DNA of 4,278 nt from a virus. Its lineage: Duplodnaviria > Heunggongvirae > Uroviricota > Caudoviricetes. A model generated the notes under the pieces. The model searched no databases. It was not told the origin of the DNA and saw only the letters and a program-made list of their open reading frames with translations. The stretch lies in IMG/VR virus record IMGVR_UViG_2531839104_000018. The stretch is one strand, 5' to 3'. The position numbers and the translations under genes are program-made. Shown here piece by piece: positions 1 through 4,278 of this stretch; within the stretch, counting starts at the first letter, position 1, and each line of letters starts with the position of its first letter.

Positions 1-92
1 CCCCGTAACAGCAGTACCGCACACAGCAGCGCTATCATGATCGGTCGCCAGAAGCGGTTCAGACTTTCGGCAAATCGTAGCGACATAACCAT
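1..92 (-). CDS. Probable spanin (Rz-like inner-membrane subunit), 5' end only; runs off the left edge
   Basis: A minus-strand frame opens after a TGA at 95-93, with in-frame ATGs at 92, 86 and 38. Translation is MVMSLRFAESLNRFWRPIMIALLCAVLLLRG, i.e. Arg-rich N-terminus followed by a hydrophobic stretch, as expected for an N-in signal-anchor protein. It overlaps the 3' end of the endolysin gene, as lysis genes often do. True start is ambiguous and only about 30 codons are visible. Confidence 0.35.
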   Translation of the reverse strand, partial: MVMSLRFAESLNRFWRPIMIALLCAVLLLR

Positions 93-559
93 TCATCCGC
101 CGAACGGCGGGCCTCAAGGCCGGGGAGCTTCACCCCCTTTGAATAAATCCAGCGGATATACTGCTTACAGGACGCGGGCATCTGCCCGGCATTGATCAGG
201 CGCAGAAGCGTGGAGTTGCGAAAGTTCGTTTCACCGGCCCAGAAGATCCACGAAGCCAGCGCCACCGTCTGACCACGGGTAAGCGGCACCTGAACACGCC
301 GATCAATGGCCGCAAAGGCCCATTTCATGTCCTTTTCCAGTAGTTCCAGGCATTCTTCATCCGTCAGGGTCATACCCGGTTTCACATCCGGGCCGGTATG
401 GCCGTAACAGATGGTGGGTGTACCGGTGGGATCGATATACGTGGAGTTTTCTTTCCCTTCCCAGTAACCGGTGTAATGCGTGGCAATCGTGAACGTCCCG
501 GCACCGGCCAGAACAAGGGCAATCAGCTTTTTACGCAGTGGTGCGGGGAGTTTTGGCAT
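59..559 (-). CDS. Endolysin, T4-lysozyme-like muramidase (GH24) with N-terminal SAR (signal-anchor-release) domain
   Basis: 166-aa ORF with ATG at 559. Catalytic spacing matches T4 lysozyme E11/D20/T26: E-x8-D-x5-T inside WEGKENSTYIDPTGTPT. N-terminus KKLIALVLAGAGTFTIATHY is a Gly/Ala-rich weakly hydrophobic segment typical of SAR endolysins (P21 R, P1 Lyz, Mu Lys). Motifs CYGHTGPD and AAIDRRVQVPLT resemble Mu-type endolysins as I recall them. Confidence 0.85.
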   Translation of the reverse strand: MPKLPAPLRKKLIALVLAGAGTFTIATHYTGYWEGKENSTYIDPTGTPTICYGHTGPDVKPGMTLTDEECLELLEKDMKWAFAAIDRRVQVPLTRGQTVALASWIFWAGETNFRNSTLLRLINAGQMPASCKQYIRWIYSKGVKLPGLEARRSADEWLCRYDLPKV

Positions 560-630: not shown

Positions 631-1056
631 TCAGAAAAGTGGCGGTTGTGTTCTTGCCAGATGCAGACGGCGCTGTTCACGTATGACGGTATAAATCTGG
701 GTTTCTGACATCCGGTAATGGCGGCGAAGGGATTCAATTTTCTCGCCCCGGTCCCAGCGCGAAAATATCTCATTGTTTCGCAGCTCGGCAAAGAGAGATT
801 CCCCGACCGGCAGGTAATAACCCCGTCCGCCCATATAGGCTGCCTGAGCCGCAGCCACCTTGCGTGCCAGTTTGCCGGCCAGTACCGGCTCAATCCCCTG
901 ACGCTGAAGTTCTGCGCCGGTGACTTCAACCAGTTCTGACAGGGTCCGCGGCCAGTTCTTTTTGAGAACATCATCAGGGATGTCATCAAGGCGGTCGATA
1001 AGGGCGTGCAGTTGCTCACTGTCACCACCAAACATGCTCATCTGAGTTTCTGCCAT
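631..1056 (-). CDS. Mor/C-family transcriptional activator (Mu middle/late gene activator family)
   Basis: 141-aa ORF, ATG at 1056 preceded by GGAGG 5-6 nt upstream. C-terminal half AYMGGRGYYLPVGESLFAELRNNEIFSRWDRGEKIESLRRHYRMSETQIYTVIREQRRL matches the recalled Mu Mor signature (GG..Y.P.G..L...R...I...F.G.N..EL...Y.....T.Y..IR..RRL) with a C-terminal HTH. It sits immediately upstream of the endolysin, as C does in Mu. Whether it is the Mor or the C equivalent cannot be decided from sequence alone. Confidence 0.75.
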   Translation of the reverse strand: MAETQMSMFGGDSEQLHALIDRLDDIPDDVLKKNWPRTLSELVEVTGAELQRQGIEPVLAGKLARKVAAAQAAYMGGRGYYLPVGESLFAELRNNEIFSRWDRGEKIESLRRHYRMSETQIYTVIREQRRLHLARTQPPLF

Positions 1057-1087: not shown

Positions 1088-1121
1088 TTTAAAATAAAAA
1101 TCCCGCGTTGTGGCGGGATTT
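1088..1121 (-). terminator. Rho-independent terminator between the GemA-like gene and the Mor/C-like gene
   Basis: Minus-strand RNA reads AAAUCCCGC-CACAAC-GCGGGAUUU followed by UUAUUUU. This is a perfect 9-bp GC-rich stem (plus strand 1098-1106 / 1113-1121), 6-nt loop and U-rich tail, starting 5 nt after the GemA-like stop codon. Confidence 0.7.
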
Positions 1122-1125
1122 GGGG

Positions 1126-1635
1126 TTAACGGGGAAGTGATTTTTCATACTGCCTGCAAACGGCGTCATACCCCATCAGCGTGCGTTCGGGCATTCCCAT
1201 CGCGGCCAGCATTTTGCGGCGGTGCCATCGCTTGAGACGCTCCAGCACATCTGAGGCCAGGGCGGGGTGTTGCTCCAGCCACTGCCAGTTTGCCACACCT
1301 TCGCCGCCGTTTTGCGCGGCCGTCTGCGATTTCACCCAGCGGTTAAGGGCGGTTTCCGCACCATCAGAGATAAAGCCCTGCCGGTGCATCACCTTCCAGA
1401 TGGCGCGAATTTTAGCGGTCACCGTACCCGGTTTTAAGGCCCGGTTAACCGGGTTCTGACGCACTTTAAAACCGCGTTTTTTGAAAACATCCAGCACGCG
1501 GGATAACTCATCCGGTGACATATCCCGGCAGCTGGTTTTGCCGGTGACCGCCAGTAGTACGGATGTGTAGGTTTCATCATCCAGGGCAAGCTCGCGTTTT
1601 GCCACATGAATGGCAGATATCAGTTTCCCTCTCAT
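1126..1635 (-). CDS. gemA: GemA-like protein (Mu gp16 family, formerly DUF1018)
   Basis: 169-aa ORF. N-terminus LISAIHVAKRELALDDETYTSVLLAVTGKTSCRDMSPDELSRVLDVFKKRGF matches the recalled GemA signature (IHIAK.QLGLDDDTYR.LL...GK.S...M...EL..V...L...GF). ATG at 1635 overlaps the upstream stop as ATGA. Position just upstream of the Mor/C-like gene matches Mu gene order. Assignment is from memory of the family, not from a search. Confidence 0.65.
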   Translation of the reverse strand: MRGKLISAIHVAKRELALDDETYTSVLLAVTGKTSCRDMSPDELSRVLDVFKKRGFKVRQNPVNRALKPGTVTAKIRAIWKVMHRQGFISDGAETALNRWVKSQTAAQNGGEGVANWQWLEQHPALASDVLERLKRWHRRKMLAAMGMPERTLMGYDAVCRQYEKSLPR

Positions 1636-1928
1636 GCTGTATCAACACTCCTGCGGATATGATAGGTATTATTTTCCCGATCGAGCTGAACCCGATACTC
1701 CGGAGGAATCACAAAAATATTAAAACCATCATCAGTTTTTATTCTTGAGTAGCATTCCCCCTTATGATATCTGGCCAGTGCATTAATCAGAGAAGTCGCA
1801 GCCTGCCCAATCAGGTATTTTTTATGAAAAATACTGATAACTTTCCGGCACAGCCATCGTGTAATGACGAATGCACCGAAAAAGGATGTGATATATAAAT
1901 ACCAGAACAACTGCGAACTACTGTCCAT
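1632..1928 (-). CDS. Hypothetical small membrane protein (98 aa), in the low-GC block
   Basis: ATG at 1928 with strong SD AAGGAGA 7 nt upstream. Predicted N-terminal transmembrane helix FWYLYITSFFGAFVITRWL. Stop overlaps the GemA-like start (ATGA). Local GC about 40 percent versus about 60 percent in flanking genes. Confidence 0.5.
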   Translation of the reverse strand: MDSSSQLFWYLYITSFFGAFVITRWLCRKVISIFHKKYLIGQAATSLINALARYHKGECYSRIKTDDGFNIFVIPPEYRVQLDRENNTYHIRRSVDTA

Positions 1929-2115
1929 TATCTTTCTCCTTATTCAGTCTTCTGCGGCATTCGGCACAGTCATCAGGGCTTTCAAATGTATCCGGCTCGC
2001 GATTATGAGCCAGATATAACCACCGTCCACATATACTGATATTTTCGCCTGTTTTAAAAAAATGATGCTTCCTGGCCATTAGTGGCCGCGCCCATCCAGC
2101 GGGTAGACTATTCAT
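1918..2115 (-). CDS. Hypothetical small Cys/His-containing protein (65 aa)
   Basis: ATG at 2115 with strong SD GGAGGA 8 nt upstream. Contains C29, H37 and a C50-x2-C53 pair (ICGRW...DDCAECRRR), which might form a small zinc-binding fold. Overlaps both neighbours by a few codons. Confidence 0.45.
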   Translation of the reverse strand: MNSLPAGWARPLMARKHHFFKTGENISICGRWLYLAHNREPDTFESPDDCAECRRRLNKEKDNGQ

Positions 2116-2443
2116 TTGCTTTATCCTCCATGCTGGACAGAATCATATGTATTAATGTCGGGCGTGGAGATATACGCATTTCATTAAGCGTCTGAAGGGC
2201 AGCAACAGCTGCCTGTTTATCGGTGCCTTTGGCAATTTCAGCAAGAGAATGCACAATCCATAATGGGCTTAACGCTACGGCTGAATGCAGAATCATGTCA
2301 TCCATAATAATTTCTGGCATATCCCGTTTGTCACATTCTTTATCCATAAAAGAAACGATTTTTTCTGCATCTTCCGGTTTCATGCCTCCGGCGATGAGAA
2401 TTTTACGATATTCATAAGACGATCTTAATTCAATACTCATCAT
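2108..2443 (-). CDS. Hypothetical protein (111 aa)
   Basis: ATG at 2443 (second ATG at 2440) preceded by AGGTGA. No recognisable motif. Lies in the low-GC block (about 37-42 percent GC). Confidence 0.5.
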   Translation of the reverse strand: MMSIELRSSYEYRKILIAGGMKPEDAEKIVSFMDKECDKRDMPEIIMDDMILHSAVALSPLWIVHSLAEIAKGTDKQAAVAALQTLNEMRISPRPTLIHMILSSMEDKANE

Positions 2444-2455
2444 TCACCTGCCTGT

Positions 2456-2848
2456 TTAATCAGTTTCCAGTGCTTTGCTACGGGCAACAGCCTCACACTC
2501 AAAAAATACCGACTCCGGCACACGCTCCTTTAATTCACGAACAAGAAAATCATTAACGAGTTCATGACGTCTTATATTTCTTTCCTTTTCCTCCTGGCGC
2601 AATACAGCAAGGCGGTATTCAACAGTCCGGCGTTGTTTCTGAAAGACAGCCAGTGCTTTTCTGGCAGAGTTACGCAATGTATCATCGCCACAGGGTTCGT
2701 ATTCAAGCTGAAATTTAATCTCTTCAATGGTTTCTTTTATTTTTGCCAGCAAGCTAAGACAGTCGCTGATTGTCTTCAGTTTTTCATTATCAATATAACT
2801 TCTCACGCATTCACCTCCCGTCATTCCGGTAAAGCTGAAATATGGCAC
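2456..2848 (-). CDS. Hypothetical charged, probably helical protein (130 aa from GTG 2848, or 122 aa from ATG 2824)
   Basis: GTG at 2848 is preceded by AGGTGA 7 nt upstream. Alternative ATG at 2824 forms an ATGA overlap with the upstream stop. Translation is rich in K/E/R runs (KETIEEIKFQLEYE, LRQEEKERNIRRHE), suggesting helical or coiled-coil character. Confidence 0.5.
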   Translation of the reverse strand: MPYFSFTGMTGGECVRSYIDNEKLKTISDCLSLLAKIKETIEEIKFQLEYEPCGDDTLRNSARKALAVFQKQRRTVEYRLAVLRQEEKERNIRRHELVNDFLVRELKERVPESVFFECEAVARSKALETD

Positions 2849-3132
2849 CAGTGCGTCACCTGTCCGTCCTCATCTTCAAGGCAGGCTCCGGTTTCTTCAT
2901 CAATAAAAAAGCCTTCATACCCCATATGGCCGATGCGCAGTTCCTGTTGGTCACCATACTGAACAATCAGCACGACAGCCTCCATATCAGGCGGGAAAGC
3001 ATCATTCAGTGAATGCCAGGGATAACCGCGCAAATCCCCGAAATAAACACCGGTCAGCGTTCCGCCACAGACCGGCATTCCGACGGCACACACAAGGGGT
3101 TCATCTGATTCAACAAATAATGTCGTTATCAT
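2821..3132 (-). CDS. Hypothetical highly acidic small protein (103 aa)
   Basis: ATG at 3132 overlaps the upstream stop as ATGA. By direct count the translation has 18 Asp+Glu against 2 Arg and no Lys, including the cluster FIDEETGACLEDEDGQ. Net charge is about -16. Confidence 0.55.
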   Translation of the reverse strand: MITTLFVESDEPLVCAVGMPVCGGTLTGVYFGDLRGYPWHSLNDAFPPDMEAVVLIVQYGDQQELRIGHMGYEGFFIDEETGACLEDEDGQVTHWCHISALPE

Positions 3133-3680
3133 GGCATTAATTCCCGTAATACAACATCTTCGGCAGTCCGACGACGGTGATAAATAAAACTCACCGTGCC
3201 CTCGGATAATTCAAATTTCTCGCCGATTTCCCTAAAGGTAAGACGCCGTGGTGATTCAGCATCCCGTAATTCACGAATAAGACGAACATCATCGTCAGGT
3301 ATGCGGGTGAAGGGCAGCAACTCTCCGTATTTTTTCATGCTTACGCCAATATATCGCGCCCGATTGTGGACAGAATCCCGGTCTCGCCCCAGATATTCTC
3401 CTATTTGCTTACCGGTCATTGTTCTGGCATTTTTTCGGATAAATTTATCTTCATCAGGTTTAAATCTGAGGCGTTTGCATTTGAGCAACTCCGGGTAAGT
3501 ACCGCGTAATAAAACAATCCGGTTATGTACACCCCAGAAACTTCTTTTTATCCTGACAGCAATATCCTTAACCGGGGTGGATGGATAAAGCGCAATCAGC
3601 AGCGCATCTTCTTCAGGTGTCCATGCGCGAACATGAGCGGGTGCACGGCCTTTTCTCCCCATGGGTTGTAATATCATCAT
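3129..3680 (-). CDS. Putative DNA-binding protein with tandem Myb/SANT-like HTH repeats (183 aa)
   Basis: ATG at 3680 preceded by GGGGGTGA. Two internal repeats align: WTPEEDALLIALYPSTPVKDIAVRIKRSFWGVHNRIVLL and FKPDEDKFIRKNARTMTGKQIGEYLGRDRDSVHNRARYI, sharing [WF]xP[ED]ED, a central K[DQ]I[AG] and VHNR. A third HTH-like segment is LTFREIGEKFELSEGTVSFIYHRRR. The W-x-PEED pattern resembles Myb/SANT repeats. Confidence 0.55.
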   Translation of the reverse strand: MMILQPMGRKGRAPAHVRAWTPEEDALLIALYPSTPVKDIAVRIKRSFWGVHNRIVLLRGTYPELLKCKRLRFKPDEDKFIRKNARTMTGKQIGEYLGRDRDSVHNRARYIGVSMKKYGELLPFTRIPDDDVRLIRELRDAESPRRLTFREIGEKFELSEGTVSFIYHRRRTAEDVVLRELMP

Positions 3681-3683
3681 GCA

Positions 3684-4028
3684 TCACCCCCTGACTCGCT
3701 TTTCAGCAGCATAAAACTCATCAGACAGAATTTCGGTCATTTTCTGATTTGCGGGTTTTACGCCGCACTCAAGGTAAATCACATCGTCAACGCAGAACCA
3801 CTTCACAGGGCCAAACATGATTGCCGAGAAATCAATACCCAGCCAGAACAACAGTGCATCGGTTCTGGCATACGTGACGGGCGAATATTCACGCCACAGA
3901 CTGTTAAGTTCGTCAGAGGCAACGCGCAGGGCTTTGGGAATACGTGATGTGCGCGGTGTGCAGCTCCAGCCATTCGACGCAGTCGGTTTTCGCCATAAGT
4001 CGCGATGAAAAGGATATTTGTCATCCAT
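3684..4028 (-). CDS. Hypothetical protein (114 aa); its 5' end and RBS lie inside the left arm of the inverted repeat
   Basis: ATG at 4028 with AAGGG about 12 nt upstream. Stop at 3684-3686 lies 3 nt upstream of the next gene start. No recognisable motif. First 24 codons (MDDKYPFHRDLWRKPTASNGWSCT) are exactly duplicated on the plus strand at 4206-4278. Confidence 0.5.
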   Translation of the reverse strand: MDDKYPFHRDLWRKPTASNGWSCTPRTSRIPKALRVASDELNSLWREYSPVTYARTDALLFWLGIDFSAIMFGPVKWFCVDDVIYLECGVKPANQKMTEILSDEFYAAEKRVRG

Positions 4029-4049
4029 AAAGCGCAGCCCTTTAAAACA
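3956..4049. repeat. Left arm of a perfect inverted repeat (at least 94 bp)
   Basis: Checked base by base: position p pairs with 8234-p for every p from 3956 to 4049. First mismatch is 4050 vs 4184. The outer limit is unknown because the partner of 3955 lies beyond the window end. Confidence 0.9.
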
Positions 4050-4184
4050 TCAAACCCTTCCGCGCTGGCCGCGTGGCAAAAATATCAGCAGGACTGCCAG
4101 AAAGTTAAGGATGAGGCAAAACGCCTTGAGGCCGTGCTGAATGTTGCGTGCCGGTCGGTATTTGTATCCGGTATCAGTGGCTTT

Positions 4185-4278
4185 TGTTTTAAAGGGCTGC
4201 GCTTTATGGATGACAAATATCCTTTTCATCGCGACTTATGGCGAAAACCGACTGCGTCGAATGGCTGGAGCTGCACAC
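4185..4278. repeat. Right arm of the inverted repeat; truncated by window end
   Basis: Exact reverse complement of 3956-4049. Arms are separated by a 135-bp non-palindromic core (4050-4184) that has no ORF in the six-frame track. Confidence 0.9.
4206..4278 (+). CDS. 5' end of a plus-strand gene whose first 24 codons mirror those of the 114-aa minus-strand gene; partial
   Basis: ATG at 4206 followed by codons for MDDKYPFHRDLWRKPTASNGWSCT, identical to the N-terminus of ORF 3684-4028, with the same RBS region because both lie inside the repeat. Whether the downstream sequence continues to match is not visible. Confidence 0.4.
   Translation, partial: MDDKYPFHRDLWRKPTASNGWSCT

Follow-up and report, generated by a model that had tools for sequence, protein, structure and literature searches.

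The locus raises the question of what a small protein, apparently built from repeated helix-turn-helix (HTH) motifs, does in the early region of a Mu-like phage, and on which DNA it might act. An earlier note on this DNA had described a 183-residue product encoded at positions 3129–3680, with two related internal repeats and a third HTH-like segment, had assigned the repeats to the Myb/SANT type, and had suggested that the protein is a host-directed transcription factor or a nucleoid-associated protein used in host takeover. The window, that is the whole 4278-nucleotide stretch of DNA that was analysed, covers the distal part of the early region in a Mu-like prophage of the Escherichia coli O157 type. 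Its DNA shares 96.7–100% identity with Mu-like prophages found in Shiga-toxin-producing E. coli, and all of its long open reading frames lie on the minus strand. The reading frame at 3129–3680 is exactly as described; to the earlier account can be added its strand, minus, which had not been given, and its ATG start codon. The gene and its surroundings are as follows, in the direction of transcription.

3684–4028, minus strand: gp12-like gene (phrog_2314), upstream of the gene under study
3685–3691, minus strand: Shine–Dalgarno-like run GGGGGTG, 5–11 nt upstream of the ATG of the gene under study, read from the sequence
3129–3680, minus strand: the gene under study, a complete coding sequence of 183 aa from the list of open reading frames, its product identical to RefSeq WP_000973023.1, 'DNA-binding protein'
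3129–3132, minus strand: ATGA stop/start overlap of this gene with the downstream gene
2821–3132, minus strand: first of five small downstream genes (phrog_6925)
2456–2848, minus strand: second small gene (phrog_6158)
2108–2443, minus strand: third small gene (phrog_1988)
1918–2115, minus strand: fourth small gene (phrog_2358)
1632–1928, minus strand: fifth small gene (phrog_17269)
1126–1635, minus strand: gp16/GemA
631–1056, minus strand: Mor
59–559, minus strand: lysozyme

The PHROGs matched by the five small genes are all without assigned function, and searches of these genes against NCBIfam and PADLOC gave zero matches. Nucleotides of the GGGGGTG run also belong to the stop codon of the gp12-like gene upstream, and the ATGA overlap at 3129–3132 implies translational coupling with the gene at 2821–3132, within the early operon. 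Scans for promoters and terminators on either side of the gene found no consensus signal. From this absence of flanking signals and from the arrangement at both ends, we conclude that the gene lies inside the early operon and is translationally coupled to both of its neighbours. Its product is basic, with a pI of 10.2 and a net charge of +13 as computed from the sequence.

Two further features of the window were observed. A strong intrinsic-terminator hairpin of 9 pairs with a T-run (1098–1121, minus strand) sits in the 69-nt gap from the stop of gp16/GemA (1126) to the start of Mor (1056), and suggests that the early transcript of this prophage ends, at least partly, before mor. At its end the window carries a perfect 94-nt inverted repeat (3956–4049 and 4185–4278, with a loop at 4050–4184). 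The collinearity of reference E. coli genomes with the window stops at 4049, and the last 239 nt of the window map back to the gp12-like gene on the opposite strand; the repeat resembles a contig end that is folded back or chimeric, or a local inversion. The upstream gene 3684–4028 is thereby truncated at its N-terminus, with 114 aa compared with 171 aa in the reference, covering positions 58–169 of the 173 in phrog_2314.

The gene is found at a coverage of at least 80% in 229 of 5426 complete E. coli genomes (about 4%), O157 and other Shiga-toxin strains among them. WP_000973023.1 of E. coli O157 FDAARGOS_293 is encoded between Gam and gp11/gp12-like genes on the upstream side and gp16, Mor and lysozyme on the downstream side, with the transposase and MuB genes farther upstream. 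An exhaustive search returned full-length orthologues of 170–196 aa; clustered at 50% identity, those within its best 150 matches fall into about 22 clusters, and the named sources are E. coli, Salmonella, Citrobacter and Hafniaceae. Gene neighbourhoods were surveyed by a scan of viral contigs comprising 49 IMG/VR loci, a set that also took in one truncated Mu-like fragment and one distant partial match. Orthologues in other Mu-like prophages, for which the earlier note had advised a search, are present: the gene stands directly after gp12 in 42 of the 42 Mu-like loci having upstream sequence. It is not confined to this phage type, lying between a Dam-type methyltransferase gene and replication gene A in six of six P2/186-like loci. 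NCBI and Logan contigs of P2/186-like prophages from Salmonella and Citrobacter display the same order of Dam methyltransferase gene, orthologue and gene A, often with a stop/start overlap onto A. The one exception among the P2-like elements examined is Citrobacter phage Shae_phiSM, whose copy of the gene has no methylase next to it. A scan of genome contigs yielded one distant locus only.

The architecture of the protein was analysed with an alignment of 25 homologues, which defined the following segments.

3501–3629, minus strand: repeat 1 (R1), aa 18–60, Myb-like, predicted helices 22–31, 37–43 and 48–59
3345–3464, minus strand: repeat 2 (R2), aa 73–112, a duplicate of R1, predicted helices 75–84, 90–97 and 101–110
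3168–3302, minus strand: unit 3 (R3), aa 127–171, a predicted HTH resembling sigma-70 region 4 or the AsnC type, helices 129–140, 149–156 and 160–169
3138–3164, minus strand: acidic C-terminal helix, aa 173–181, from the AlphaFold2 model and its charge

The two segments singled out in the earlier note correspond to residues 20–58 and 73–111, and their kinship is borne out. In a pairwise BLASTP the two halves share 30% identity (E = 1e-4), and profile–profile comparison of R1 with R2 by hhalign, using profiles from the 25-homologue alignment, gives a probability of 98% and an E-value of 2.5e-13 over 42 columns. This is far beyond chance, and the internal duplication is real. Unit 3 stands further off: its relation to R2 is weaker (55%, E = 1.2e-4) and the same method detects none to R1 (9%). 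The AlphaFold2 model calculated from the 25-sequence alignment (mean pLDDT 85) has three separate three-helix HTH bundles and the C-terminal helix 173–181. The predicted fold of the repeats is thus of the HTH kind, as the earlier note had proposed, and its third HTH-like segment reappears as the bundle at residues 129–169. The pTM of the model is just 0.54, as would be expected if the domains are loosely coupled and take no set orientation to one another, and for the same reason a whole-chain Foldseek search against the PDB was uninformative.

The units differ in charge and in conservation. Positive charge is carried by R1, R2 and both linkers, while unit 3 is neutral and the C-terminal helix acidic. 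In the 25-homologue alignment, W20, T21, E24, D25, L28, L31, R46, R54 and L58 of R1 are invariant; the first aromatic residue of R2 is F73 in the window protein and Trp in the P2-type clade. Unit 3 is the richest of the three in invariant columns (D129, D131, L134, R136, L138, R139, D140, F149, I152, E154, K155, F156 and R170), which are densest in its helices 1 and 2 (DxDVxLIRxLRD and LTFxEIGEKF). The presumed recognition helices, by comparison, differ between the Mu-type and P2-type clades, except for one conserved arginine in each.

How far the repeats may be called Myb/SANT domains, Pfam PF00249 and PF13921, depends on the level at which they are examined. The window protein passed not one gathering threshold in Pfam, and its Myb_DNA-binding match scored 16.9 against 24.4 bits over residues 19–31 only, the W-T-P-E-E-D start. 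Among the 25 homologues, 19 match Myb_DNA-binding at E ≤ 0.01 (best E = 6.3e-9), and two orthologues of the P2 clade, P0027 (34.5) and P0019 (26.0), exceed the gathering score of 24.4. A single-sequence phmmer search of the PDB gave noise, with a best E-value of 0.095, and it was therefore through the family profile that Myb relatives were found there: run against all PDB sequences, the profile places c-Myb at the top (E = 4e-6), followed by B-Myb (2e-4) and other Myb domains. Residues 18–105 align in one stretch to residues 60–149 of c-Myb, its R2R3 segment, with both repeats and the linker in register. The predicted repeats have the three-helix bundle of a Myb/SANT domain, of about 50 aa with the HTH formed by helices 2 and 3, and in their charge R1, R2 and the linkers, all basic, resemble DNA-binding Myb domains and not acidic SANT domains. 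What is missing is the regularly spaced Trp triad of the c-Myb and B-Myb R2R3 structures (PDB 1h88, 1a5j and 1mse): in the 25 homologues W20 is invariant and R2 has Trp or Phe at position 73, but the second and third positions of each repeat are of the I/A/L type. The protein is, moreover, prokaryotic-viral, and its third unit is no Myb repeat. The similarity to Myb proposed in the earlier note is thus significant for the family, whereas the window protein taken by itself stays below threshold and lacks the triad. 'Tandem Myb-like HTH repeats' appears a fair wording, whereas strict membership of the Myb family would go beyond the scores of the window protein.

Databases offer other names. Most homologues are called 'AsnC family protein' by NCBI, others 'SANT/Myb domain-containing', and on the first of these labels the window protein would be an AsnC/Lrp-family regulator. 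HTH_AsnC-type does match it, at 21.5 bits, but below the cut-off of 27 bits and covering just the HTH of unit 3; no RAM ligand-binding domain is matched, and the model is all-helical with no β-strands. With the C-terminal RAM domain absent, the AsnC/Lrp reading is refuted, and we regard the label as almost certainly wrong.

Three further assignments were rejected. The best Pfam match of the window protein is Sigma70_r4 at residues 145–169 (23.3 against 24.1 bits), and the NCBIfam search returned just a sub-threshold match to the sigma-70 ECF model TIGR02937 (18.9 against 42.9 bits); these matches are to region 4 alone, with no region 2, and the protein is not a sigma-70 factor. Membership of the GcrA family was set aside after neither the window protein nor its 24 homologues matched Pfam PF07750. 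In PADLOC the protein had no defence-system match beyond a marginal 'homing endonuclease' (E = 0.0096). A weak similarity was also seen to Cbp1, the CRISPR-repeat-binding protein of Sulfolobus (PDB 2lvs), a small protein with three HTH units in tandem that reads an extended DNA site; it was present in both structure searches, with a profile match at E = 6e-4 over residues 29–114, but it is archaeal and chromosomal and has another biological role.

The clearest relationship is with a protein of phage T5. Over residues 2–182 the window protein matches positions 80–256 of the 319 in phrog_323, 'transcriptional regulator, D5-like', with an E-value of 6.3e-58, and D5 of T5 (T5.118, YP_006946.1) falls in the same PHROG (E = 1.2e-71). 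The family is therefore already catalogued as PHROG 323 and is not a new kind of element. Direct comparison of the family with D5 by hhalign gives 96.6% and an E-value of 6e-10 over 151 collinear columns, residues 17–171 aligning with D5 71–232, such that R1, R2 and R3 correspond to D5 units 2, 3 and 4. Both proteins are products of early genes and have tandem tri-helical HTH units of the W/F-T-P-E type, with a Myb-like internal unit and a last unit like sigma region 4; in Pfam, unit 2 of D5 is Myb-like but sub-threshold, and its last unit passes Sigma70_r4_2. By these alignments the window protein is a three-unit member of a T5 D5-like multi-HTH family. The link is nevertheless a remote one, with about 24% identity between a 183-aa protein of three units and a 255-aa protein of four, and T5 is a virulent phage with its own replisome, in which the D5 gene lies between those for ligase and helicase.

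Phage Mu itself encodes a shorter relative. Mup09 (gp9, formerly E8; 99 aa, NC_000929 5482–5781) belongs to the same PHROG (E = 5.2e-29), a label carried in its RefSeq record, and its homology to the window protein takes in R2, linker 2 and R3 (hhalign 97.8%, E = 8.5e-13; BLASTP 32% identity, E = 2e-9). Mu gp9 accordingly has two units, without the N-terminal Myb-like R1, where the window protein has three. Its gene precedes gam in Mu, whereas the window gene follows gp12, although both lie in the early region of a transposable phage. The remark in the earlier note that such repeats are not a well-known feature of Mu early regions was in consequence half right, the feature being little known but represented in Mu by this two-unit homologue. 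When the window protein, Mu gp9 and T5 D5 were used as tblastn queries on a 24.5-kb stretch of O157 prophage, the gene under study alone was matched, and the three genes directly before gam in that prophage fall in other PHROGs. A literature search on Mu gp9, on Myb/SANT in Mu-like prophages and on GcrA- or Myb-like phage proteins returned nothing specific.

Beyond these full-length and two-unit proteins, the Myb-like HTH unit is very common, with 12,956 cluster representatives at E ≤ 0.001. Many of the proteins bearing it are long, with 5–10 tandem copies, and the metagenomic sequences P0033, P0036, P0043, P0080 and P0139 are examples of proteins with 4–10 copies of about 47 aa each. Among phages of Vibrio, Klebsiella and Escherichia (the last including D6 and C130_2), and among mycobacteriophages, there are distant relatives with two units, some of which adjoin or sit inside HNH-endonuclease or methylase genes. 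In P0033 the tandem units are fused to a SNF2/ResIII helicase. The 'replication origin binding' helicase T5.108 is annotated with the InterPro entry SANT/Myb (IPR001005), and these two proteins hint at a recurrent pairing of helicases with Myb-like HTH units in phage replication proteins.

Taking these lines together, we think it probable that the gene encodes an early-operon double-stranded DNA-binding protein, similar to T5 D5, whose three independently folded HTH units serve as an accessory factor on phage DNA. D5 is reported to be a DNA-binding protein, and papers published in 1979 by McCorquodale and by Rice and colleagues reportedly describe its cooperative binding to double-stranded DNA. 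From this kinship and from the distribution of charge we infer that the window protein also binds DNA, and our proposals for its specificity and biological role are inferred in the same way. The three tri-helical units would be strung on short basic linkers like beads on a string. In the way of c-Myb R2R3, R1 and R2 might each insert their third helix into the major groove of neighbouring DNA, and the neutral, sigma region 4-like unit 3 could contribute an extra DNA contact, a conserved protein contact, or both. By analogy with D5, the target of the protein in the lytic cycle would be phage DNA, and as a dispensable accessory it would modulate the passage from early to late expression or replication. 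According to the RefSeq note on D5 (YP_006946.1), this DNA-binding protein is needed both for late transcription and for the replication of DNA, and takes part in shutting off expression. The analogy has its limits, since remote homologues often differ in function and the identity to D5 is 24%. Nor does a role in replication such as that of D5 carry over directly to Mu-like phages, which replicate by transposition.

The main alternative is the one suggested in the earlier note, a factor aimed at the host, which as a sequence-specific transcription factor or nucleoid-associated protein would reprogramme or silence host genes during takeover. A basic protein with multiple HTH units would suit such a task, as would its location in the semi-essential early region, which in Mu is home to the host-directed Kil and Gam, and expression of D5 alone is toxic to E. 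coli. Nothing that we found, however, favours a target on host DNA over one on phage DNA; D5, the characterised relative, acts in phage replication and late transcription, and the same gene stands in the replication module of P2-like phages. We consider host direction unlikely and, by analogy with D5, a dedicated host transcription factor would be less likely than action on phage DNA. The pattern of conservation raises another issue. Variable recognition helices combined with conserved helices 1 and 2 of unit 3 suit a conserved DNA site no better than a conserved protein partner, and the pattern fits non-specific or diversified DNA contacts made together with such a partner. Carried further, this would make the protein an adaptor in which unit 3, the SANT-like units, or both dock on RNA polymerase or some other protein (the β-flap, sigma or a replication protein, for example), with DNA binding in second place. 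Protein binding is frequent among SANT domains, and both the top Pfam match, Sigma70_r4, and the best structural match, GcrA, can be read in the same sense; yet R1, R2 and the linkers are strongly basic, and D5 is reported as a DNA-binding protein. The chance that the adaptor reading is correct seems to us small.

GcrA enters a further alternative, in which the protein would read adenine methylation as GcrA does and would depend on Dam methylation for its DNA binding or its activity. The DNA-binding domain of Caulobacter GcrA (PDB 5yiu) is the best structural match, but the likeness is structural only and concerns one unit. GcrA works with sigma-70; it has a single unit and a C-terminal sigma-interacting region, while the window protein has three units and lacks that region. 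A methylation reader is, in our estimation, very unlikely. There remains the reading of the gene as the stand-alone remnant of the DNA-binding arm of an HNH-type homing endonuclease, or as a selfish cassette with no role in phage development. It draws on the two-unit relatives that stand under HNH endonuclease or methylase annotations in mycobacteriophages, on BFVD structural neighbours that include 'Endonuclease' and 'HNHc' proteins, on weak matches to the PADLOC 'homing endonuclease' (E = 0.0096) and to the HNH profile phrog_1891, and on the occurrence of the gene in the unrelated Mu-like and P2-like phages. Against it, the protein has no nuclease domain, the gene stays intact, with its length and translational coupling conserved, in no fewer than 22 clusters (50% identity), and the orthologue alignment gives no sign of dN/dS near 1 or of frequent pseudogenisation. 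Its fixed position in each phage type likewise argues for a selected function, and we rate a homing remnant as highly improbable.

An accessory DNA-binding protein acting on phage DNA is therefore the reading that we retain. It is no new kind of system, as tandem Myb-like HTH modules abound in the proteins of phages and prokaryotes. Most genes in the semi-essential early regions of Mu-like phages are uncharacterised; the present one and Mu gp9 are now joined to the T5 D5 family. The kinship with D5 supplies a concrete hypothesis for a gene found in about 4% of complete E. coli genomes, and a misleading 'AsnC family' label in the databases is corrected. D5 has also come to notice in bacterial immunity: a 2026 preprint describes it as an HTH protein that is toxic when expressed alone, and proposes that it triggers the type IX retron Kva2 through binding to msdDNA, the binding being an AlphaFold3 prediction (bioRxiv 10.64898/2026.07.11.737809). 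One may speculate that Mu gp9, the O157 three-HTH protein and T5 D5 form a single ancient and widespread early 'DNA-coating' class of multi-HTH proteins, which by marking or remodelling phage DNA switches it from early expression to replication and late expression, is also a trigger sensed by retrons, and in P2-type phages acts in a GcrA-like manner coupled to the adjacent Dam methylase. We doubt that this scheme is right as a whole. If it were, a prophage protein would be a developmental regulator and an immune liability at once, type IX retrons would bind D5 by mimicry through their msdDNA, and the class would be a common trigger of bacterial immunity.

The slot between the gene and GemA is variable. 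In Salmonella Mu-like prophages, a gene for a PF04447 dATP/dGTP pyrophosphohydrolase, which is not in the window, lies between the orthologue and GemA; the region from gp12 to gemA is a hotspot for accessory genes.
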